From Patescibacteria group bacterium (lineage in GTDB: Bacteria > Patescibacteriota > Patescibacteriia > 2-12-FULL-60-25), in the NCBI GenBank assembly GCA_038061235.1, contig JBBTZS010000002.1:4672-68671 (forward strand): a stretch of 64,000 bases of DNA. The letters run 5' to 3'. The notes below the pieces were generated by a model that was not told where the DNA came from, did no database searches, and worked only from the letters and a program-made list of their open reading frames with translations. Shown here piece by piece: positions 2-63,585 of the stretch. Made by a program: the position numbers and the translations under genes. Position 1 is the stretch's first letter. Each line of letters starts with the position of its first letter.

Positions 2-160
2 GAGGTCGGCAAGCACAAGATTTTCATGATGGATCCGGACACGGAATCAGGGATTCGCATCATGCCGATCGAGGAGTTCGAAAGCGTCTGGCACGACACC
101 GAGGGCGGAAAAGAAAAGGTCGAGCGCTGGATGATGGCGATCACGAAATTCAAACAGTAG
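2..160 (+). CDS. 3' end of a CDS entering from upstream (52 codons); tentatively the C-terminal part of a papain-like (C39-like) peptidase domain
   Basis: Frame 2 open from window edge to TAG at 158-160 (..KIFMMDPD..FESVWHD..RWMMAITKFKQ). Family call rests only on recalled motif resemblance. Confidence 0.4.
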   Translation, partial: EVGKHKIFMMDPDTESGIRIMPIEEFESVWHDTEGGKEKVERWMMAITKFKQ

Positions 161-184
161 GGACATGGCGTGCCGTGTCCCTAC
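157..184. repeat. REP-like 28-bp palindrome, copy 1 (GTAGGGACATGGCGTGCCGTGTCCCTAC)
   Basis: Self-complementary with GTAG..CTAC termini. Overlaps the stop codon of the upstream CDS, between convergent genes. Confidence 0.8.
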
Positions 185-3198: not shown

Positions 3199-3309
3199 GA
3201 CAAGGGACAAAGAGCAAAGAGCAGCTCCAGATTGGAACTGCTCTTTGCTCTTTGCTCTTTTCTAACTGCCCCCGCTCTCTGCTCTTTGTTTACTGTTCTC
3301 TGTGCTTAG
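3199..3309. repeat. Composite AAGAGCA/TGCTCTT heptamer hairpin element, copy A
   Basis: GACAAAGAGCAAAGAGCAG-13 nt loop-CTGCTCTTTGCTCTTTGCTC followed by a CTCTGCTCTTTGTTTACTGTTCTCTG tail. Near-identical organisation at 40808-40905. Confidence 0.85.
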
Positions 3310-21432: not shown

Positions 21433-22608
21433 ATGCCCATGGCCGTGGAACCCGTTCGCTTCGAGACGCGTCGAGAACCGCGTCGCGTCGCGCTCGTCCA
21501 CGACTATCTCGTGCAGGATGGCGGCAGCGAACGCGTCCTCCTCGCGCTGCACGAATTGTATCCGCGCGCGCCGATTTTTACGCTCTTCCACAATCCGGCG
21601 CGCACGCATATCGGCTTCAAACATGCCGACATCCGTCCGTCGTATCTGAACAATCTTCCCTTCGCAAAAAAACGCTACCAGTGGTATCTGCCCTTCATGC
21701 CGGACGCGGTGGAACGGTTCGATCTCTCCAACTTCGACCTCGTCCTCTCCTCTTCCTCCACCTTCGCCAAGGGTGTCATCGCCGCGCCGGAAGGTTTGCA
21801 CGTTTGCTACTGCCACACACCGACGCGTTTTCTCTGGCAAGAACGCGCGGGATACGTAAACGAATTGCCGCAACCGCGTTTCGTAAAACGATTCATCCCG
21901 CCGCTCCTGCATCTCATGCGCCAATGGGACGCGATCGCCGCGCGCCGTCCGGACGTGATGCTCACCAACAGCCAAACGTCGCGTCTACGCATCCGCCGCT
22001 ATTACCAACGCGACGCGGAAGTTCTCGCGCCGCCCGTGGACATCGATCGCATCCCCTTTTCAACGAATCCGGGCTCTTATTGGCTCACCGGCGGGCGTCT
22101 CGTGGCATACAAACGCTTCGATCTTGTCGTGCAGGCGTTCGCAAAACTCAACGTCCCGCTCAAAATCTTCGGCGAAGGCCCGGAGCGTGACAAGCTCCGC
22201 AAGATGGCCGGCCCGAAAACGGAATTTCTCGGACACGTCACGGACGAGGCAAAGATCCAGCTCTTCCGCGACGCCATCGCTTTCCTGCATCCGCAAATCG
22301 AGGACTTCGGCATCACCGCGGTCGAGGCCATGGCCGCCGGTCGTCCCATCATCGCCTTCGGACAAGGCGGCGCGGCCGAGACGGTGTTGAACGGCGTCAC
22401 CGGCACGTTTTTTGAAGTGCAATGTTGGGAAGACGTCGGCAACGCCGTATTGCGATTCGACCCGGCGCGCTTTGATCCGCGCCAAATCCGCAAACACGCC
22501 GAAACCTTCGGCAAGCCACGCTTTTTGGAACAAATGAAACAACGTCTCGACCGCGCATGGTCCAGCCACACATCTGACATCTCACATCTGACATCTCACA
22601 TCGTATGA
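21433..22608 (+). CDS. Glycosyltransferase family 4 (GT-B, group 1)
   Basis: 391-aa ORF with a C-terminal GT1 domain (FLHPQIEDFGITAVEAMAAGRPIIA). Stop overlaps the next start (ATGA). Confidence 0.85.
   Translation: MPMAVEPVRFETRREPRRVALVHDYLVQDGGSERVLLALHELYPRAPIFTLFHNPARTHIGFKHADIRPSYLNNLPFAKKRYQWYLPFMPDAVERFDLSNFDLVLSSSSTFAKGVIAAPEGLHVCYCHTPTRFLWQERAGYVNELPQPRFVKRFIPPLLHLMRQWDAIAARRPDVMLTNSQTSRLRIRRYYQRDAEVLAPPVDIDRIPFSTNPGSYWLTGGRLVAYKRFDLVVQAFAKLNVPLKIFGEGPERDKLRKMAGPKTEFLGHVTDEAKIQLFRDAIAFLHPQIEDFGITAVEAMAAGRPIIAFGQGGAAETVLNGVTGTFFEVQCWEDVGNAVLRFDPARFDPRQIRKHAETFGKPRFLEQMKQRLDRAWSSHTSDISHLTSHIV
22570..22603. repeat. Tandem heptanucleotide array ACATCTG/ACATCTC x5
   Basis: Forms the last 11 codons (HTSDISHLTSHIV) of the glycosyltransferase gene. 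Confidence 0.85.
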
Positions 22609-23711
22609 GAGTTCTGATGGACGGCCGTCCGATGCTGCGCCCATGGATGGGCGGCGTCCCAAGACTCGCGTCGAGTTTAGCGACATCGATCAAGGCGGCA
22701 CTCGGTGACGACCAACTGATCATCGCGACGACGGGCCTGCGCCGCGCGACAGATTCCGCCGTTTTAAGTTTCAAGTTTCAAGTTTCAAGACCCATCCCCA
22801 ACAAACTCATCGCCTTTCTCACCTTCACCGGCCTTTCTTCATTCGATCGTTTGTTTCGAGATCAAAATGCGGACGTGCTCCTCCTGCCGAATCTCGAATT
22901 CGTCGGTCGCCCGCGCATGCCGTACGCGCTTCTCGTCCACGATCTTTCGTTTCTGGTCGAACCGCGCTGGTTTGACCGTAAATCCCGTATCTGGCACGCG
23001 CTCGTGAAACCACGATCGTTGATCAGGAATGCGACGCATCTCTTCACAGTTTCCGAAACAACGAAACGCGATCTCATACGTCTACTCGATATTGATCCGT
23101 CGCGGATTACCGTGATTCCGATGGGACTCGATCCGCTTCCCGCGCTTCCCGACAACGATCGCCTGTCGCGGGCGCATGACCATGCGCCCCTACCGCAAAA
23201 CGGGCGGTTCATCTTGTGTCTCGGCGGATCTAATACGAGAAAAAACGCGTCATGCGTTTTGGCCGCGCATGCCATGCTCGTAAAAAATCCGAAATTTCAA
23301 GATGTGGATTTGGTTATTTGCGGTGGCCTCTCCCCTCAATCCCCTCCTCCCGGAAGAGGGGCAAGGGGTGGTGCGACGCACCTCGACCGTCCTTCCGACA
23401 CCGAACTTTTTTCCCTCATGCGTGACGCCTCAATATTTTGTTATCCGTCTTGGTACGAAGGCTTTGGGATACCACTCCATGAAGCCGCGAGATTCGGAAC
23501 GCCGTGTATCGCTTCGACCTCGAGCTCACTTCCGGAAACTGCACCCGAAGGAACGACGTTTGCCTCGCCCGCTAAACCCCATCATTGGGTCGAAGCGATA
23601 TGTCAGGTCTTGGACAATCCGGAAAAACATCGAACCAAAACCGTACTCGGAGACTGGAGTGAGGCGGGGCGCATAATCACGAATAAGCTGCGTGAAATAG
23701 CAAAGGCCTGA
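22605..23711 (+). CDS. Glycosyltransferase (GT-B, group 1)
   Basis: 368-aa ORF with GT1-type C-terminal domain (FCYPSWYEGFGIPLHEAARFGTPCIAS). Contains two repeat-derived in-frame segments. Confidence 0.8.
   Translation: MRVLMDGRPMLRPWMGGVPRLASSLATSIKAALGDDQLIIATTGLRRATDSAVLSFKFQVSRPIPNKLIAFLTFTGLSSFDRLFRDQNADVLLLPNLEFVGRPRMPYALLVHDLSFLVEPRWFDRKSRIWHALVKPRSLIRNATHLFTVSETTKRDLIRLLDIDPSRITVIPMGLDPLPALPDNDRLSRAHDHAPLPQNGRFILCLGGSNTRKNASCVLAAHAMLVKNPKFQDVDLVICGGLSPQSPPPGRGARGGATHLDRPSDTELFSLMRDASIFCYPSWYEGFGIPLHEAARFGTPCIASTSSSLPETAPEGTTFASPAKPHHWVEAICQVLDNPEKHRTKTVLGDWSEAGRIITNKLREIAKA
22761..22789. repeat. Tandem heptanucleotide array GTTTCAA x4
   Basis: Inside the CDS, translated as VLSFKFQVSR. 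Confidence 0.85.
23327..23385. repeat. G-run/C-run hairpin element inside the glycosyltransferase CDS
   Basis: CTCCCCTCAATCCCCTCCTCCCGGAAGAGGGGCAAGGGGTGG, translated as GLSPQSPPPGRGARGG. Related in style to 27686-27760. Confidence 0.65.
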
Positions 23712-23722
23712 TTTTTGGCTAA

Positions 23723-23750
23723 GTAGGGGCACGGCATGCCGTACCCCTAC
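23723..23750. repeat. REP-like palindrome, copy 2 (GTAGGGGCACGGCATGCCGTACCCCTAC), followed by a T-run
   Basis: 12 nt after the glycosyltransferase stop and followed by TTTTTT, so it probably also acts as a terminator. Confidence 0.8.
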
Positions 23751-23767: not shown

Positions 23768-23796
23768 TTGACAAAATACGATTTTTATGCTATGCT
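23768..23796 (+). promoter_or_regulatory. Sigma70-type promoter for the 23901-25563 gene pair
   Basis: TTGACA-17 nt-TATGCT, about 100-nt leader, then AAGGAGG 7 nt before the ATG at 23901. Confidence 0.6.
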
Positions 23797-23900
23797 TACA
23801 CGTTCGAGTCTGATTCCGCATACGGCGGTTTCAGGTCTCGGCACGCACCCGGGGAAGGCGTAAGCCGACTCCATGACAACTCAACAAGAAGGAGGTGGCC

Positions 23901-24749
23901 ATGCGCCACGTAAACCGTTTCGACCTGGTCATCAACACCGAAAGTCTCGAGGAGCGTGACAATCTTCTCCAAGGCTTCAACCTCGTCGGCAAACTCATCG
24001 ACGAAGAGGCGTTCTATGCTCTCGTCGAAAAGTCGAAGGCGACCGAGGAGGCCGGGGTGGAGGGCTTGCACATCCGCAAGCGCATCACCCACGGCGAACA
24101 GCGCGTGGCCGAGGCCACGCGTAAGACCGAGATGAAGCATCGGGGCATCAAGCCCGAGATCGAGGGGCTCATCCACACGGGCGAACTCGCCCTCCCCAAG
24201 GAGGGCGTCGAGTTCGCCGTCATCGACGGCTTGCTCGATCAACTCGAAGTGCGGTTCGACCTCTTCGGGTTCCGACTCGAGCAGAAGGCGGTCAAGTACA
24301 CCGCCGGCGAAGTCAAGGACGCTCGACGGAAGGGGCTGGACGTTAAGTTCGGCGACTTCAAGAAGAGCGAAAAGGGCGGAGAGGTCTTCCTCTGGAAGTT
24401 CCGCTTCCTCTTCTTCACGAAGGGGAGCGTCCCCGTCGTGCAGACGGAGTTGATGCAGCTCCTGAGGGAGTACGGCAGCCAGGCGATCGTGCACAGAGCG
24501 CGATGCTACTACAATGGCGATTTCGATGCCGTCGAGCTCCTGCTCGGTTACATCCCGCCGATACTCGAGCGCGTCACCCGCGTGCTCTACGACGGGAAGG
24601 GATTCTACGTCAGGTCCATCCCGAACAACAGGAAGGGGAGGGTCAAGCCGATCGAGCGACGTCCGTCGCTCAAGGCCTCGCTCGAAGAGCGCGTCGGCGG
24701 CAAGAAGCTCGAAAGCAAGAACGGCGACACCCCGCCGCCCGCGAGCTGA
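23901..24749 (+). CDS. Hypothetical protein (282 aa)
   Basis: ORF 23895-24749. Strong SD AAGGAGG before the ATG at 23901. Two hairpins downstream (24769-24797, 24819-24856). No family recognised. Confidence 0.6.
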   Translation: MRHVNRFDLVINTESLEERDNLLQGFNLVGKLIDEEAFYALVEKSKATEEAGVEGLHIRKRITHGEQRVAEATRKTEMKHRGIKPEIEGLIHTGELALPKEGVEFAVIDGLLDQLEVRFDLFGFRLEQKAVKYTAGEVKDARRKGLDVKFGDFKKSEKGGEVFLWKFRFLFFTKGSVPVVQTELMQLLREYGSQAIVHRARCYYNGDFDAVELLLGYIPPILERVTRVLYDGKGFYVRSIPNNRKGRVKPIERRPSLKASLEERVGGKKLESKNGDTPPPAS

Positions 24750-33587: not shown

Positions 33588-35270
33588 ATGCCCTCCCCAA
33601 CGCCTCAAACTGTCCCCGACTTCGTTGCCCGTATTCGCACGACGTTTGGAATTGACGAGATTGAGAATCTACCGGAGGACGTGACGACCCTTCGCTACGT
33701 CCTATACGCCCGCAAGAGCACCGATAACTCGGCCAAGCAGGAACGATCCATCGGCGACCAAATCCACGAATGTAAGACATTGGCAGAGCGTGCAGGGCTT
33801 CACGTCGTGGCCGTTCTCCACGAAGAACACTCGGCCAAGCTCTCCGGCAAGAGGGACGTGTTTCATGCCATGCTGGCAAGCCTGTCCAGCGGCGAATATG
33901 ACGCCATCCTGACATGGGCTCCTGACCGTCTTGCCCGCAACATGAAAGACGCGGGGGAGGTGCTCGACCTACTCGATAAAAACGACATCAAGGACATCAA
34001 GTTCGCCAATGGGTACTACTTCCAAAATGACGGCGCGGGCAAGATGATGCTCGGCATCGCCTTCGTGCAGGCTAAACAGTTCATAGACACCCACTCCCAG
34101 AACATCAAACGCGGCATCAGTCGCATCACGGCCGAGGGCAAGTGCTACGACCGTCCCAAACACGGCTACTACAAAGACAAGGACAAGTACCTCCGGCCTG
34201 ACGGGGAGAACTGGAACCTCATCAAAAAGGCCTTCGAGATGCGCCTGTCACGCGAACCGAAGTACGCTTTGCGGGAAATCGGGACATGGTTACAGGGGCA
34301 GGGCTACCCGCTCAAAACCAAGCACCCAGAACGTCACTCAATCGTCGTTGACGATAAGTTCTTGTCTGACCTATTCCGTGATCCTTTCTATGCCGGAGCC
34401 CTCATCTTCGGCAAGCGGATCGTAGACCTGACAAACAAGTACAACTTCCAACCTATCATCACGCCTGACGAGTTCGACATGCTCGCCAAAGAAGATGGCA
34501 TCAATAAGAAGTTCACGTTGTCCGAGGTCATCAAGCCCAAGGGCTCGGTCAAAGCTGACCTCATGCGTGGGATGGTCATTTGTGGCGGTTGCAATCGTCC
34601 CCGTTCCGCTGGCATCACCCCAAAGAAAACCAAAACGGGTACGACAAACTATTTTCTATACCGTTGCGACACGGTGGGGTGCAAATACAAAGGCAAATCC
34701 ATCCGCGCAAAGGAGGTGCTGGCCGCCGCCTACGCCTTCCTCGACAGCCACCCGATGAACTTTGAGAAGGGCTACGCGGCGTACAAGCGCGATATGGAGC
34801 ATCAAATCGGCGTGCGCGACGCGGAACTCCTATCAAAGCTCAAATCCCTTCATAAACAACACGAGGCGGCCAAGGAACGGGTGGACGAGGCCAAGGCATC
34901 GCTCAAACAATATGCGGACGACGCGGTGCTCGTAAAAGAGTTCAAGAAAGACTTGACGCAACAACTCGCAAAACAGCACGAACTCGAAAACGAAATACGC
35001 AAACTACAGAAAAAACGAGAGGACGGAAAAGAGGCGATCCAAAGCTACGAACAGTTCATCGAACTTTTCGGAAATCTGGCTCAACACATCAAAAAAATAA
35101 CCAACATGGACGACTTGGATTACATCATGAAAAAAGTCTTCATGAACTTTGTTATCGAGGGCAAGAAAGTCGCTCAAATAACACAAAACTCCCTGTTTAG
35201 GGAGTTGTGCGGTACACCGGAATCGGTGATGGTAGCCCCAAGGGGAGTCGAACCCCTCTTAACGGCTTGA
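33588..35270 (+). CDS. Large serine recombinase
   Basis: Resolvase catalytic domain (YARKSTD..SIGDQ, DRLARN), recombinase domain, a Cys cluster (CGGCN..C..C) and a C-terminal coiled coil. The last 41 nt overlap tRNA-Glu on the other strand. Confidence 0.88.
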   Translation: MPSPTPQTVPDFVARIRTTFGIDEIENLPEDVTTLRYVLYARKSTDNSAKQERSIGDQIHECKTLAERAGLHVVAVLHEEHSAKLSGKRDVFHAMLASLSSGEYDAILTWAPDRLARNMKDAGEVLDLLDKNDIKDIKFANGYYFQNDGAGKMMLGIAFVQAKQFIDTHSQNIKRGISRITAEGKCYDRPKHGYYKDKDKYLRPDGENWNLIKKAFEMRLSREPKYALREIGTWLQGQGYPLKTKHPERHSIVVDDKFLSDLFRDPFYAGALIFGKRIVDLTNKYNFQPIITPDEFDMLAKEDGINKKFTLSEVIKPKGSVKADLMRGMVICGGCNRPRSAGITPKKTKTGTTNYFLYRCDTVGCKYKGKSIRAKEVLAAAYAFLDSHPMNFEKGYAAYKRDMEHQIGVRDAELLSKLKSLHKQHEAAKERVDEAKASLKQYADDAVLVKEFKKDLTQQLAKQHELENEIRKLQKKREDGKEAIQSYEQFIELFGNLAQHIKKITNMDDLDYIMKKVFMNFVIEGKKVAQITQNSLFRELCGTPESVMVAPRGVEPLLTA

Positions 35271-36332: not shown

Positions 36333-38930
36333 ATGCAAACTCCCGTATCCGATACCCCTGTGCCGTTTTGGTCGCAACCGACCGAACGCGTCCTTTTCGA
36401 ATTGAAAAGCTCGTCGCAAGGACTCACGACTCCGGAAGCGGCCAAACGTCTTTCGCGGTACGGAAAAAATGAAATCGACGGACGTCGTCGGCTTGGAGCG
36501 CTTGTCATCCTTCTTTCGCAACTCAAAAGCCCCCTCATCATCATCCTGCTGGTCGGATGCGCGATCTCCCTTGTCCTGCGGGAGTGGGTGAACGCCGTCG
36601 TGATTCTTGCCACGGTCATCGTAAACACGGGTCTTGGTTTTTGGCAGGAAAATAAGGCTGAAACGGTTCTTGAAGAATTGAAGACCTACTTAAAAAGTCA
36701 CGTACGCGTTTTTCGCGACGGAGCGGGGCACAAGCGGGACGCGACGGAGCTCGTGCCGGGCGACGTGATCCATCTTTCGCAAGGCGATCGCGTACCGGCG
36801 GACGGGCGTATTCTGGAAGCGAATAGCTTAGATGTCGACGAATCCGTCCTTACAGGAGAATCGCTGCCTGTGCACAAAGATGGAAAAGCGGTGAAAGAAG
36901 ACGCGCCGCTCGGCGAGCGCGGCTCCATGGTCTGGAGCGGAACGCTGGCGGTGCAAGGGTTCGCGCAAATCGTCGTCACCGCCACGGGAAAAAACACCGA
37001 GTTCGGCCGCATCGCCGAAATGGTTTCCTCGCGCGAACGTGAGACAACGCCGCTCCAAAAAGCCGTGGCCTCGTTCGCCCGCGTCATCGCCGTCGTCGTG
37101 ATCGCCTTGTCGGGCCTCCTGTTTGGGATCGGCTTCGCGCTTGGCCAGGACCCCGCCGAGATGTTTTTTATTTCGATCGCGATCGCGGTATCGGCCGTAC
37201 CGGAAGGACTCCCCGTCGCGCTCACCGTCATTCTCGCGATCGGCGTGGAGCGCCTCGCGAGACAAAAAGGCATCGTCCGCAAATTGCTCGCGGCCGAAAC
37301 GTTGGGATCGACCAGCCTCATCCTGACGGATAAAACAGGCACCCTCACGCAGGCCGACATGCGTCTCGTTGACGTCGTTTCGTATGGGGCGGACACGGAA
37401 GAACGGGTGGCGGCCATGCTGCGTGAAGCCGTGTTGAACACGGATATCATCATAGAAAATCCGGAGGCGGATCCCGATGACTGGCAGATCATCGGACGCT
37501 CCATGGAATCGTCACTCGTGCGTGACGCGGGAAGGCGTGGCGTTCTCTTGCCAAGACTTCACAAAACGTATCGCATCGTTGATCGCGTGCCATTTGATTC
37601 AAAGAAGAAATATGGCGCCGTGCTCGCGGTCGACGGCGGCGAACAACGACTGATTCTCATGGGCGCACCGGAAATCCTGCTCGCGCTTACCGACGTCTCC
37701 GAGGAAGAACGCGAACGGATCGGCCGCGAAATGGAAGATCGGGCGTACGGCGGAGAACGTCTGCTCGGACTCGCGTCCGTCGCTTACCCCAAGGAAAAAA
37801 TCGATACGCGTAGTCGTTACATAAATCTCGAATTTAAAGGCTTCCTCGCCTTCCGTGATCCGGTGCGACCAAACGTGAAGGAAGCGATCAAGCGCATCAG
37901 CCAAGCGGGCGTAAAAACCGTGATCGTCACCGGCGATCACAAGGGAACAGCCGAACACGTGGCGCGCGAACTCGGCATTCTGGAAGGGCGCGGTCTCGTC
38001 GTGACCGGCTCGGAGCTTGCACAGATGGACGTCGCACGATTGCGTGAACGCCTGCCCGACATACGCATTTACGCGCGCGTCACGCCGGAGCAAAAGCTCA
38101 TGCTCACGCGGTTGTATCGCGAGCAGGGCGAGATCGTGGCCGTGACGGGCGACGGCGTAAACGACGCGCCGGCGCTTCAAGCCGCGGACGTGGGCGTCGC
38201 GGTCGGATCGGGAACCGAAGTCGCCAAAGGCGCGGCCGATCTCGTTATTCTCGACGATAACTTCAACACGATCGTCATCGCAATCGAGGAAGGTCGTCGC
38301 ATTCTCGACAATATCCGAAAAGTGTTCGTCTATCTGCTCTCAAACGCGGCGAACGAACTCGCGCTCATCGGCGGCGCGTTGCTGTTTCAAGTCCCGATCC
38401 CCATCACGGCACTGCAAATCCTCTATGTGAACTTCTTTTCCGACAGTCTTCCCGCTATCGCGCTCGCGTTTGAAGAAATCGGTGACTCGAAAAATCGTTC
38501 ACGCACCGTCGGCACCGCCACGATTCTCAATTCCCAAGTGCGCTTCTTCATTTTCGTGCTCGGTCTTGGAACCAGCTTCATGCTATTCGCGCTTTACTAT
38601 ATTCTTCTTGGCCAAGGACATGATCCGGCGCTTGTACGAACGCTTATCTTCGCGTCATTCGCAAGCTATACGCTCTTCGTTGCGTTTTCCCTGCGAAGCT
38701 TGAAGCACAGCATTCTGACATATAACCCGTTCGGCAACCGCTACTTAACGGCGGGTGTCGGCATCGGTCTGGTTCTGACCGCCGGAGCGATTTATCTCCC
38801 CTTTCTCCAAAAAATCCTAAGCACGGTTCCACTTCCGCTCCCTTGGCTCGGCGGCGTGCTCGTCGTCGGTCTCGTAAACGTCATCTTCGTCGAGGGCGCA
38901 AAGTGGATCTATCGAAAGCGAGAGGATTAA
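36333..38930 (+). CDS. Cation-transporting P-type ATPase (P2, Ca2+/Mg2+-type)
   Basis: ORF 36252-38930; ATG at 36333. Canonical TGES, DKTGTLT, TGDHKGTA and GDGVNDAPAL motifs. Confidence 0.9.
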   Translation: MQTPVSDTPVPFWSQPTERVLFELKSSSQGLTTPEAAKRLSRYGKNEIDGRRRLGALVILLSQLKSPLIIILLVGCAISLVLREWVNAVVILATVIVNTGLGFWQENKAETVLEELKTYLKSHVRVFRDGAGHKRDATELVPGDVIHLSQGDRVPADGRILEANSLDVDESVLTGESLPVHKDGKAVKEDAPLGERGSMVWSGTLAVQGFAQIVVTATGKNTEFGRIAEMVSSRERETTPLQKAVASFARVIAVVVIALSGLLFGIGFALGQDPAEMFFISIAIAVSAVPEGLPVALTVILAIGVERLARQKGIVRKLLAAETLGSTSLILTDKTGTLTQADMRLVDVVSYGADTEERVAAMLREAVLNTDIIIENPEADPDDWQIIGRSMESSLVRDAGRRGVLLPRLHKTYRIVDRVPFDSKKKYGAVLAVDGGEQRLILMGAPEILLALTDVSEEERERIGREMEDRAYGGERLLGLASVAYPKEKIDTRSRYINLEFKGFLAFRDPVRPNVKEAIKRISQAGVKTVIVTGDHKGTAEHVARELGILEGRGLVVTGSELAQMDVARLRERLPDIRIYARVTPEQKLMLTRLYREQGEIVAVTGDGVNDAPALQAADVGVAVGSGTEVAKGAADLVILDDNFNTIVIAIEEGRRILDNIRKVFVYLLSNAANELALIGGALLFQVPIPITALQILYVNFFSDSLPAIALAFEEIGDSKNRSRTVGTATILNSQVRFFIFVLGLGTSFMLFALYYILLGQGHDPALVRTLIFASFASYTLFVAFSLRSLKHSILTYNPFGNRYLTAGVGIGLVLTAGAIYLPFLQKILSTVPLPLPWLGGVLVVGLVNVIFVEGAKWIYRKRED

Positions 38931-39670
38931 GACCGTTTGGATTGCGCCTTCCTCCACTCCTCAATCTTTTTATGATTCCCCGAGAGAAGTACGTCGGGCA
39001 CATTCCAAACTTTTAACTTTTGCCTTTTGCCTTTTGACTTACCAAGAACATAATTTTCCGGTCTCGTATACTGCGGATATTCGAGTACGCCTGCGTCCGT
39101 ATGCGACTCGGCCGCAAGCGACTCCGCTTTGCCAAGGACGCCGGGAACCAGGCGCGCGACGGCATCCGTCATGACGAGTGCGGGGAGTTCGCCGCCCGTC
39201 AGAACGTACGGCCCGATGGACAGCTCCTCGTCGGCGAGATGTTTGGCGATGCGCTCGTCCATGCCCTCGTATCGCCCGCACAAAAAGACGAGGCGGTCGT
39301 ATTTCGAAAGTCGCTTTGCCTCCTGCTGTGTGAACGGTTTCCCTTTTGCGGATGTAACGATGACGCGCGCCTTTTTGGCAGCGGCCGTTTTCTTTCCGTC
39401 TTTCGTCCGGAGTTTGAGCGAGACGAGTGCTTCGTGAAACGGCGCGACTTTCATCACCATCCCGGGACCACCGCCAAACGGCTTGTCGTCCACAGTTTTA
39501 TGCGCGTCATGCGTCCAGCGGCGCAAGTCATGCACCTGGATTTGTAGGGGTACGGCGCGCCGTGCTCCTACCGAACGTTGCGCACGCCCCAAAATCGAAC
39601 CGCGTAAATACGGCTCCACCATTTCAGGAAAAATAGTGACGATATCGACGCGTAATGGTTTGCGTTTCAT
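38927..39670 (-). CDS. trmD: tRNA (guanine37-N1)-methyltransferase TrmD
   Basis: 247-aa ORF: IVTIFPEM, VDDKPFGGGPGMVM, CGRYEG.DER, LSIGPYVLTGGE motifs. Carries an in-frame palindrome insertion. Confidence 0.92.
   Translation of the reverse strand: MKRKPLRVDIVTIFPEMVEPYLRGSILGRAQRSVGARRAVPLQIQVHDLRRWTHDAHKTVDDKPFGGGPGMVMKVAPFHEALVSLKLRTKDGKKTAAAKKARVIVTSAKGKPFTQQEAKRLSKYDRLVFLCGRYEGMDERIAKHLADEELSIGPYVLTGGELPALVMTDAVARLVPGVLGKAESLAAESHTDAGVLEYPQYTRPENYVLGKSKGKRQKLKVWNVPDVLLSGNHKKIEEWRKAQSKRS
39544..39571. repeat. REP-like palindrome, copy 5, inside trmD
   Basis: GTAGGGGTACGGCGCGCCGTGCTCCTAC, translated on the minus strand as SVGARRAVPLQ. Confidence 0.8.
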
Positions 39671-40408: not shown

Positions 40409-40792
40409 ATGTTGATCATCCGTTTAACCCGCGTCGGGAAAAAGAAACAGCCGCAATATCGTTTTATCGTGTCGGAAAAAGCGCGCGACCCGTGGGGCAA
40501 GGCGCTCGAAATTCTTGGTACGTATGAACCGCGCCGCAAGCCGTCGGTCATCACGCTCAAAAAAGAACGCGTCGAATTCTGGATTCAGAAAGGCGCCCAA
40601 TGCTCGGACACGGTGTGGAATCTCTTCGTTGATCAGGGCCTCGTAAAGGGCGAGAAGCGAAAGCAAATCAAACTTTCGACTAAGCGCAAAGCGAAGCTCG
40701 GAAAGAAAGCGGAGGAAACCGCCGCCAAAGCCGCGGCCGCCGTTCCCGCTCCCGCTCCGGAGCCGGCTCCCGCGGAAGAACCCGCCGCATAA
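40409..40792 (+). CDS. rpsP: 30S ribosomal protein S16 with a Lys/Ala/Pro-rich C-terminal extension
   Basis: MLIIRLTRVGKKKQPQYRFIV..DPWGKALEILGTYEP is a canonical S16 N-terminus. Confidence 0.92.
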   Translation: MLIIRLTRVGKKKQPQYRFIVSEKARDPWGKALEILGTYEPRRKPSVITLKKERVEFWIQKGAQCSDTVWNLFVDQGLVKGEKRKQIKLSTKRKAKLGKKAEETAAKAAAAVPAPAPEPAPAEEPAA

Positions 40793-40807
40793 AAGAGGGG
40801 GCGATTA

Positions 40808-40905
40808 GAAAAGAGCAGAGAGCAAAGAGCAGTTCCAATCCGGAGCTGCTCTTTGCTCTCTGCTCTCTGTTCTTTGCTCTTTGTTTACTGCTCTCTGTTC
40901 TCTAC
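40808..40905. repeat. Composite AAGAGCA/TGCTCTT heptamer hairpin element, copy B
   Basis: AAAGAGCAGAGAGCAAAGAGCAG-13 nt loop-CTGCTCTTTGCTCTCTGCTC plus a ..CTTTGTTTACTGCTCTCTG tail. The loop is the reverse complement of the copy A loop. Confidence 0.85.
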
Positions 40906-58509: not shown

Positions 58510-58602
58510 CAAAGAGCAGTTTGCAAAGAGCAAAGAGCAGCTTTGGAACAGAAGTCGATGGCCGAGAACTGCTCTTTGTTCTTTGAGAGCTGTTCTCTGC
58601 TA
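58510..58602. repeat. AAGAGCA/TGCTCTT heptamer hairpin element in the 23S-5S spacer
   Basis: CAAAGAGCAGTTTGCAAAGAGCAAAGAGCAG-28 nt-CTGCTCTTTGTTCTTTGAG.. Confidence 0.8.
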
Positions 58603-63054: not shown

Positions 63055-63585
63055 ATGAAACGCATCCAAATCCGCGCCGTCGGGCGACTCCCCGAGGCCT
63101 GGCAACGCGAAGCCCAAACCGCCCTTCTCGCACGGCTTCAACCGTATGCCAAAACCGAAATCCTCGAGGTTTCCGAGGGGCACGGCGGCTCCCGCAAGCC
63201 GGATGCGACACGCGCTAAACGGGCCGAGGCCGAAGCGCTTCGTAGGGGCACGGCGCGCCGTGCCCCTACGAACGCATTCGTGATTGCGCTTGATGAACAC
63301 GGGAAGGAATATGACTCCCTCGCTTTTGCGAAGCAGATCGAGACGTGGTCCGAGGGTGGCCGACCGCTTGTCTTTCTCATCGGCGGTTCGTGGGGCTTGG
63401 ATGAAGCGCTCGCGAAGGACGCGCACGCAAAACTCTCGCTTGGAAAAATGACATGGCCGCACGCGATCGCGCGCCTGCTGCTTCTCGAACAACTCTTCCG
63501 CGCCGAGACGATTGCTCGTGGCAAGGAGTATCATAAGCGACTCTGTGATATACTCTTTCCATCATTCATTCTTGTCTCAAAATAA
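63055..63585 (+). CDS. rlmH: 23S rRNA (pseudouridine1915-N3)-methyltransferase RlmH
   Basis: 176-aa ORF: MKRIQIRAVGRL.., FLIGGSWGL, TWPHAIARLLLLEQLFRA..YHK are SPOUT/RlmH-typical. Carries an in-frame palindrome insertion. Confidence 0.85.
   Translation: MKRIQIRAVGRLPEAWQREAQTALLARLQPYAKTEILEVSEGHGGSRKPDATRAKRAEAEALRRGTARRAPTNAFVIALDEHGKEYDSLAFAKQIETWSEGGRPLVFLIGGSWGLDEALAKDAHAKLSLGKMTWPHAIARLLLLEQLFRAETIARGKEYHKRLCDILFPSFILVSK
63242..63269. repeat. REP-like palindrome, copy 6 (perfect: GTAGGGGCACGGCGCGCCGTGCCCCTAC), inside rlmH
   Basis: Perfect 28-bp palindrome, translated as RRGTARRAPT. Confidence 0.9.

Follow-up and report, generated by a model that had tools for sequence, protein, structure and literature searches.

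Several studies have described mobile palindromes that come close to the element discussed here. Among the transposases associated with repetitive extragenic palindromic (REP) sequences, known as TnpA_REP or REP-associated tyrosine transposases (RAYTs), subclass 2.4 of Quentin et al. 2018 (PMC6006769) is defined by the motifs NH[IFV]H, WQ and YIxNNP and occurs in Cyanobacteria, Bacteroidetes and various other phyla; it corresponds to RAYT Group 4 of Bertels et al. 2017 (PMC5581495), which was found in 17 bacterial classes. The REPs of this subclass include "double foot" families, with 5' GT[AG]G, 3' C[TC]AC and three G-C pairs at the base of the stem, and a feature described there as unique is that REPs lie in frame within the tnpA_REP genes themselves, between HuH and Y (PMC6006769). 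Di Nocera et al. 2013 (PMC3733652) described GTAG REPs inside genes, where the reading frame is preserved or the TAG of the foot serves as a stop codon. They found nucleic-acid enzymes enriched among the REP-bearing genes, reported different REPs at about the same recB site in two Xanthomonas species, and equated the short Rickettsia palindromic elements (RPEs) RPE-4 and RPE-6 with CGTC-tagged REPs of R. conorii (PMC3733652). Here we analyze a stretch of 64,000 nucleotides from a Patescibacteria group bacterium (contig JBBTZS010000002.1), referred to below as the window, in which a 28-bp palindrome occurs six times, three of them in frame within the genes trmD, tsaD and rlmH. In our opinion it is probable (roughly 0.8) that these six palindromes are double-foot GTAG REP copies of the subclass 2.4/Group 4 kind, which were dispersed and then filtered by reading frame, gene ends and intergenic space.

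The palindrome has the form GTAGGG-N4-GGC-NN-GCC-N4-CCCTAC. A search of the window with the pattern GTAGGGNNNNGGCNNGCCNNNNCCCTAC, tolerating up to three mismatches, returns copies starting at 157, 23723, 26848, 27882, 39544 and 63242, exactly those listed in the preliminary description of this DNA. Only 0.01 copies are expected by chance, and no dinucleotide-preserving shuffle attains six. We also scanned the window with a weight matrix derived from about 150 copies of the palindrome. The six copies score 31-45 bits and the best site in the shuffles 8.9, whereas the next site in the window reaches only -8.5, so that the family is sharply delimited in these 64 kb and has left no decayed relics there. 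The copies are dispersed over 63 kb of the window as isolated single palindromes, thousands of bases apart, with the exception of those at 26848 and 27882, which are 1 kb apart.

Each unit is built of a 5' GTAG, a 3' CTAC, a GGG/CCC stem base, a 12-bp stem and a 4-nt loop. Folded as single-stranded DNA, four intact copies adopt this 12-bp stem and 4-nt loop at -7.5 to -14.4 kcal/mol, the lower end being the rlmH copy (z -4.8). Pairing is lost in the copy at the junction of tsaD and tsaE (26848) and in the copy inside tsaD (27882); the fold of the latter (-5.1 kcal/mol) is no better than that of shuffles, which makes it a partly decayed hairpin. The 5' foot is GTAG in four of the six copies, and 26848 and 27882 have GTAC on one side, that is, a degenerate third position. 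The 3' foot is CTAC in five copies and CTCC in 27882. Three G-C pairs (GGG...CCC) form the stem base in all six, the listed mismatches being allowed. Thus, every defining feature of subclass 2.4 that we examined in the window copies is present.

Two frames of the palindrome are free of stop codons on either strand: GTA-GGG.., read as VGARRAVPL, and AGG-GGC.., read as RGTARRAPT. The third frame opens with TAG. The copies in trmD and tsaD are of the VGARRAVPL type and the rlmH copy is of the RGTARRAPT type, in agreement with the earlier statement that three copies lie inside genes without breaking the frame and that rlmH uses a different one. The TAG frame is used at the 3' end of tsaD and in an open reading frame (ORF) that enters the window at position 2. 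Altogether three copies are in frame, two give a TAG stop and one is intergenic. Having two open frames on both strands, with small flexible residues, may make the family unusually tolerable within genes, and this would matter most in a genome of the Candidate Phyla Radiation (CPR) with little intergenic DNA.

The copies at gene ends deserve a few details. TAG at 158-160 terminates the plus-strand ORF 2-160, as had been proposed. A convergent minus-strand gene finishes nearby, at 191-193, so that the T-run next to this copy is coding sequence. The intergenic copy at 23723 is directly followed on the plus strand by TTTTTT; by eye it resembles a terminator, and a simple terminator scan made no call at this hairpin and T6. 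The copy at 26848 had been described as spanning both the tsaD stop and the tsaE start. It does supply the stop codon of tsaD, but the tsaE start (ATG at 26843-26841, MKYIVAK) lies 5 nt beyond the element. As a result, tsaD carries one in-frame copy, the foot of another copy as its stop codon and, in addition, an in-frame block of an unrelated palindrome. We refer to the 28-bp family as A-type and to this second family as B-type. The features are collected in Table 1.

Table 1. Palindrome copies, their host genes and RAYT-like ORFs that bear the palindrome in other genomes
Feature	Sequence	Position	Strand	Remarks
REP copy in rlmH	window	63242..63269		perfect 28/28; AGG-GGC frame; R63-T72 = RRGTARRAPT
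rlmH, 23S rRNA pseudouridine-1915 N3 methyltransferase	window	63055..63585	+	176 aa; PDB RlmH matches 5e-21
REP copy in trmD	window	39544..39571		1 pattern mismatch; minus-strand reading; GTA-GGA frame; VGARRAVPL (context SVGARRAVPLQ)
trmD, tRNA (m1G37) methyltransferase	window	38927..39670	-	247 aa; identified by translation and solved-structure matches
REP copy in tsaD	window	27882..27909		2 pattern mismatches; encodes GGARRAVSV (context GRGGARRAVSVQ)
B-type palindromic block in tsaD	window	27664..27765	-	unrelated to A-type; in frame; encodes ..PQPLLGKEGAIRSPLTKGRYRGV..
tsaD, t6A37 threonylcarbamoyltransferase	window	26872..27984	-	370 aa; solved-structure matches; tsaE directly downstream
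REP copy at tsaD/tsaE junction	window	26848..26875		tsaD stop = TAG 26872-26874, minus strand
Intergenic REP copy	window	23723..23750		between convergent ORFs 22605-23711 (+) and 23796-24494 (-); hairpin -9.3 kcal/mol
REP copy between convergent genes	window	157..184		hairpin -9.9 kcal/mol, z -4.8
RAYT-like ORF	L023	1898-2590	-	Dehalococcoidia MAG; ..MPNHVHGIIVINC-RGTACRAPT-AERFGKP.. (longer context ..VVMPNHVHGIIVINC-RGTACRAPT-AERFGKP..)
RAYT-like ORF	L071	60-713	+	Anaerolineae MAG; ..MPNHLHGILVLVHDAPS-RGTACRAPT-DTFGQP..
RAYT-like ORF	L080	3015-3923	+	Prevotellaceae MAG; five degenerate tandem copies
RAYT-like ORF	L084	4816-6093	+	Abditibacteriaceae MAG; RGMARHAPT; RAYT half followed by a restriction-endonuclease-like domain
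MAG, metagenome-assembled genome.

The in-frame blocks are absent from most orthologues. In TrmD the block is lacking in 58 of the 59 closest orthologues, which are up to 85% identical. In RlmH most orthologues show the common state ..EGLAKGY-KDDAF.., four lineages have an A-type block RRG[TMI]AR[RHY]APT, and four others have a B-type block (..PSSSPLGKGRKRGV..) at the very position of the A-type block. TsaD has insertions at two loops: site 1 (residues 25-34), occupied in the window by the A-type copy, and site 2 (residues 75-95), occupied in the window by the B-type block. At site 2, other lineages carry A-type peptides (RGTARRAPM, GGTARRAPT, RSTARRAST, RGKARRAPT) and their nearest relatives are empty. 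Among 120 cluster representatives of each protein, the A-type peptide signature is found in one TrmD, four RlmH and seven TsaD. Hence filled and empty sites exist among close relatives, both as protein signatures and as pairs compared at the DNA level. The remaining one of the 59 TrmD orthologues, P0042 (74% identical), has RVPAHGHAPL at the same loop as the VGARRAVPL of the window; this looks like a different or decayed copy of the palindrome.

With regard to structure, the TrmD and TsaD blocks appear as gaps in printed alignments to solved structures. The TrmD block falls within a 6-residue gap in two printed PDB alignments (S. aureus-type TrmD chains), and the matched spans of other solved TrmD chains are about 24-31 residues shorter than the query. 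In AlphaFold2 models, the RlmH block is a loop between helix 51-64 and strand 75-84, with a per-residue confidence (pLDDT) of about 69. The A-type block of TsaD is the tip of a beta-hairpin, with residues 25-32 unstructured and strands 15-24 and 33-43 on its flanks, and the B-type region is a disordered loop, residues 75-95, with pLDDT 48-64. These alignments and the two models place the insert blocks in predicted surface loops, and the orthologue comparison shows the 9-10 residue blocks to be lineage-specific additions rather than ancestral sequence. The comparison with orthologues and structures proposed in the preliminary description has therefore come out in favor of insertion.

A cluster with 100% identity to the RlmH of the window is named RlmH and comes from Patescibacteria; identical proteins occur in assemblies of Hainich groundwater, and the nearest named relatives are Candidatus Uhrbacteria. 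Independent assemblies of several ENA and Logan samples contain the insert-bearing allele of TrmD, which excludes an assembly artefact. The peptides predicted to span the insert junctions include SVGARRAVPLQIQVHDLR and those covering RRGTARRAPTNAFVIALDEHGK. A separate observation concerns the C-terminus of RlmH: residues 162-176 (63538-63585) form a 15-residue tail, RLCDILFPSFILVSK, past the usual ..EYHK end of the orthologues, with pLDDT below 50 in the model, and a stop codon may have been lost or shifted here.

The link of this palindrome to RAYTs comes from other genomes. With E. coli RayT as the query, the ORFs of all loci collected yielded six RAYT-like ORFs, and in four of them (L023, L071, L080 and L084, of at least 120 loci) the palindrome lies in frame, directly past the HUH motif. 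The other two, in L031 and L025, contain no demonstrable palindrome. The four ORFs with the palindrome have the motifs NH[VLF]H, WQ and YIxxNP, match the NCBIfam model REP_Tyr_transpos with E-values of 1e-8 to 1e-17 (32-63 bits versus an equivalog cut-off of 80), and one of them matches Pfam Y1_Tnp. The in-frame REP within a transposase gene, characteristic of the subclass, is thus found in genomes other than that of the window. Together with the feet and the stem base, these ORFs bear out the earlier assignment to REP elements of the GTAG/RAYT kind. Its remark that no transposase is visible in the window also stands: a jackhmmer search with E. coli RayT and an hmmsearch with a profile of the new RAYT-like ORFs found no Y1/RAYT gene in these 64 kb.

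The palindrome is widely distributed. Our cross-phylum scan used one genome per GTDB species; it yielded at least 120 stretches with the 28-mers, and their MAGs represent over 20 phylum-level groups, a minimum for the true spread. Among the matches listed are Chloroflexota, Cyanobacteria, Planctomycetota, Omnitrophota, Acidobacteriota, Bacteroidota, Nitrospirota, Desulfobacterota and Armatimonadota, as well as, within Patescibacteria, Peribacteria, Saccharimonadales and Uhrbacteria. A few exact 28-mers dominate, and identical ones such as GTAGGGGCACGGCATGCCGTGCCCCTAC and GTAGGGGCGAGGCATGCCTCGCCCCTAC recur across groups and viral contigs. The four unconstrained stem positions are fully complementary in 108 of the 125 copies among the matches listed, with at least 12 stem variants, and the center of the palindrome is mostly AT or GC. 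A crude gene call on the same matches puts 47 of 125 copies in the interior of ORFs, and another 10 overlap an ORF 3' end; over-extended start codons probably account for many of the interior calls close to 5' ends. In-frame copies verified by Pfam in other phyla are found in the linker of an E2 acyltransferase, an MmeI-type restriction-modification enzyme (methyltransferase domain), RecO and an AAA ATPase, and in PurL (L118) a copy is in frame upstream of the recognized Pfam domains. One intragenic candidate, in L021, proved to be a spurious antisense ORF rich in Arg and was set aside. Among 2.9 million viral contigs, we found 22 with the palindrome and a single one with a gene for a RAYT relative; thus phages are no obvious main route of its spread.

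Comparison of filled with empty sites allows the junctions to be described. In the relatives L130, L131 and L132, the tsaD stop and the tsaE start overlap as ATGA. The junction in the window reads GGAATCT[GTAGGGACACGGCATGCTGTGCCCGTAC GAAT]ATGAAAT, which is a clean addition of 32 nt (the REP plus GAAT) placed between CT and ATGA; the two genes are separated by it and a new TAG stop arises. The in-frame copies give net gains of 12 nt in rlmH, 15 nt at tsaD site 2 (L130 versus L131), 18 nt in trmD and 18 nt at tsaD site 1, and 10-16 nt of the ancestral loop codons are missing or rewritten. No target-site duplication recurs consistently over 148 copies, which is what Y1 transposition would lead one to expect. 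Direct repeats of 2 nt are in weak excess in the same set (19 observed, 7.8 expected, shuffle maximum 15), and no conserved flanks extend beyond the 28 bp, save a pyrimidine bias at position -1. A TTC...GAA extension seen at rlmH is not shared by the copies in general.

At rlmH the same site recurs. The left boundary of the insertion is the same Leu codon in four lineages, and each of the four has its own perfectly or nearly perfectly self-complementary stem variant, among them ..GCACGGCGCGCCGTGC.., ..GCATGGCACGCCATGC.. and ..GCATAGCGCGCTATGC.. Identity among the RlmH genes that bear the A-type element is only 72-81%, no higher than with alleles that are empty or of B-type. The window and L128 agree at 28 of 28 positions of the palindrome, whereas the gene is 78% identical and its third codon positions 60% (P ~1e-3). 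Either the same site was struck repeatedly, or the hairpin is actively maintained. Moreover, in the two RlmH genes most similar to each other (83% amino acid identity), the interval between CTY and CGAAC is filled differently, by the A-type element in one gene and by a B-type palindrome of 45 nt in the second.

As to the B-type family, its core in the tsaD of the window, TCTCCCCTTTGTAAGGGGAGA at 27697-27717, encodes ..SPLTKGRYRGV.. and adjoins a smaller palindrome CCCCTCCTT..AAGGAGGGG. The RlmH gene of a relative (L129, 77-580) has the B-type element CTACCCCTCTTCATCTCCCCTTGGTAAGGGGAGAAAGATAGGGGTC, encoding ..PSSSPLGKGRKIGV.. The family occupies exactly those loops of RlmH and TsaD that bear the GTAG palindrome in sister lineages, and its ends, CTAC...GT[AC], are the A-type feet in reverse arrangement. 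The PurL of a Nitrospirota MAG (L118, 282-3386) combines an A-type-like CREQACLFPT with a B-type-like ..PSSPPFTKGGKGGFS.. in one protein, which suggests that the two palindromes co-occur outside Patescibacteria too. It is tempting to speculate, though we would give this only a small chance, that in Patescibacteria double-foot REPs and the second palindrome family act as exchangeable loop cassettes, which enter surface loops of essential RNA-modification enzymes repeatedly at the same nucleotide positions, replace the target and keep a perfect hairpin as the host diverges. If true, this would mean a site-directed mechanism, possibly RAYT-independent, that is undescribed for REPs.

How, then, could the six copies have come about? 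On the reading that we prefer, dispersal of double-foot REPs by a RAYT, the single-stranded element would fold into a hairpin, and a RAYT would recognize the GTAG foot, cut and rejoin, so that copies become dispersed. To our knowledge, cleavage and rejoining by a RAYT have been shown biochemically for the E. coli enzyme only, and we know of no direct observation of REP insertion itself. In a compact genome with scarce intergenic DNA, three sorts of copies would survive. Some would be read in an open frame, add a net multiple of three nucleotides and sit in a surface loop that tolerates them (trmD, tsaD, rlmH). Others would lie at the 3' end of a gene and lend it the TAG of their foot as stop codon (tsaD, ORF 2-160), and the remainder would occupy intergenic space (23723). 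The in-frame copies would be translated as short loop extensions, probably carried along as near-neutral passengers and not kept as functional modules.

Several points weigh against this reading. No RAYT gene is present in the 64 kb of this genome that the window covers, and the local sample is six copies only. A simple 28-nt Y1 "peel and paste" does not explain net gains of 12 to 18 nt with 10-16 nt lost. It also leaves unexplained that one RlmH position carries four different stem variants in lineages 72-81% identical. Finally, that the inserts are translated and neutral is what we infer from sequence.

Some of these points would be accommodated if the palindrome were spread or renewed without a RAYT. 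Gene conversion, hairpin-promoted template switching, or the repair of breaks with a REP from another place as template are candidates, and each would replace a stretch of the target. The replacement seen with all in-frame copies instead of a gain of 28 nt, the alternation of A-type and 45-nt B-type palindromes in one interval of the two most similar RlmH genes, the better conservation of orthologous-site copies than of the host gene, and the absence of a RAYT from the window all agree with it. However, the copy at the tsaD/tsaE junction is a clean addition, in other phyla the family goes together with RAYT genes (as also in PMC6006769), and the reduced net gains could follow from selection for short loops after simple insertion. 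We therefore judge it unlikely that RAYTs had no part.

The blocks might instead be kept for a protein role, as Arg-rich loops that help TrmD, TsaD and RlmH to bind tRNA or rRNA, the DNA palindrome being incidental. Indeed, the three hosts all act on RNA, both open frames are Arg-rich, and the excess of nucleic-acid enzymes among REP-bearing genes (Di Nocera et al., PMC3733652) fits as well. Yet conservation lies in the nucleotide palindrome: it is the same whether a copy is intergenic or read in either of two frames, and it recurs unchanged in unrelated proteins (the E2 linker, PurL, membrane proteins). Changes in the stem compensate each other in the DNA, the majority of orthologues lack the blocks, and the loops are of low confidence in the models, all of which makes such a role very improbable in our opinion. 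Hardly credible is an intron-like or programmed excision of the segments before translation, which would leave the proteins unaltered: beyond the potential of the hairpin as a processing signal nothing speaks for it, only the two stop-free frames are used, and since the unit is 28 nt, its exact removal would break the frame in all three genes, so that the in-frame copies would have to be translated. Chance similarity or ancestral sequence without any repeat family is refuted by the expectation of 0.01 copies, by the absence of the blocks in nearly all orthologues and by hundreds of copies elsewhere with covarying stems.

The window contains other repeats and a possible mobile element. Intergenic inverted repeats at 3201-3260, 40787-40891 and 58510-58599 consist of AAAGAGCA-type units, for example CAAAGAGCAAAGAGCAGCTCCA / TGGAACTGCTCTTTGCTCTTTG, and make up a third repeat family that has no relation to the GTAG palindrome. 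At 446-480, just upstream of the start of a minus-strand gene, CCAGTTG/CCAGTGA-like heptamers form a short tandem array (ccagttgccagttaccagtgaccagttgccagttgcc). A large serine recombinase (33573-35270, plus strand, Resolvase/Recombinase domains, about 560 aa) and an adjoining small HTH_17 gene are both absent from the matching place in the relatives L131 and L132; this region may be an integrated element.

If the palindromes are what we propose, a documented class of mobile hairpins extends to the Candidate Phyla Radiation, where little intergenic space would lead to a large share of copies being translated within essential genes. For annotation, the family accounts for odd Gly/Ala/Arg/Pro-rich blocks of 9-10 residues (VGARRAVPL, RGTARRAPT) and for some TAG stops in many phyla. 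The same-site recurrence and the replacement-type junctions provide material on how REPs insert.

It remains to compare the element with the systems already known. With Rickettsia palindromic elements it shares in-frame tolerance in essential genes and positions on the protein surface. Those are long palindromic units, about 100 bp or more, without GTAG/CTAC feet, and we know of no link between them and RAYTs; the unit in the window has 28 bp, with no conserved flanks apart from the pyrimidine at position -1. The preliminary description held in-frame colonization to be known mainly from these Rickettsia elements. This has to be corrected, as intragenic GTAG REPs were already reported in PMC3733652 and in-frame copies in transposase genes in PMC6006769, and given these precedents the RPEs are not the closest comparison. 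The REPs and bacterial interspersed mosaic elements (BIMEs) of E. coli with RayT (YafM), and the Pseudomonas REPINs, resemble our element in the GTAG foot, the GC-rich hairpin and a Y1/HUH relative as presumed mobilizer. However, the E. coli elements are almost entirely extragenic, while the window units are single symmetric 28-mers, and REPINs consist of two inverted REPs with a spacer, while all six window copies are single. The intragenic GTAG REPs of Di Nocera et al. are nearer, with a whole REP within an ORF, the frame kept, TAG used as a stop and nucleic-acid enzymes as hosts; they differ in having GTAG at one end and in being mostly proteobacterial, with a few in Opitutus and Roseiflexus, whereas here the element is fully symmetric and the host a genome-reduced member of the CPR. 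A literature search for REPs in Patescibacteria or the CPR found nothing relevant, and one with the raw sequence GTAGGGGC gave only primer matches. The likeness to the double-foot REPs of RAYT subclass 2.4 extends to the GT[AG]G/C[TC]AC feet, the G-C stem base and the scatter over many phyla. Unlike those, our element has no RAYT visible in the 64 kb of the window, half of its window copies are intragenic, and its host belongs to the Patescibacteria (Uhrbacteria-like), a name with 0 occurrences in PMC6006769. The element itself is of an already described kind, the double-foot GTAG REP, and it is the host lineage, Uhrbacteria-like Patescibacteria, that is new.

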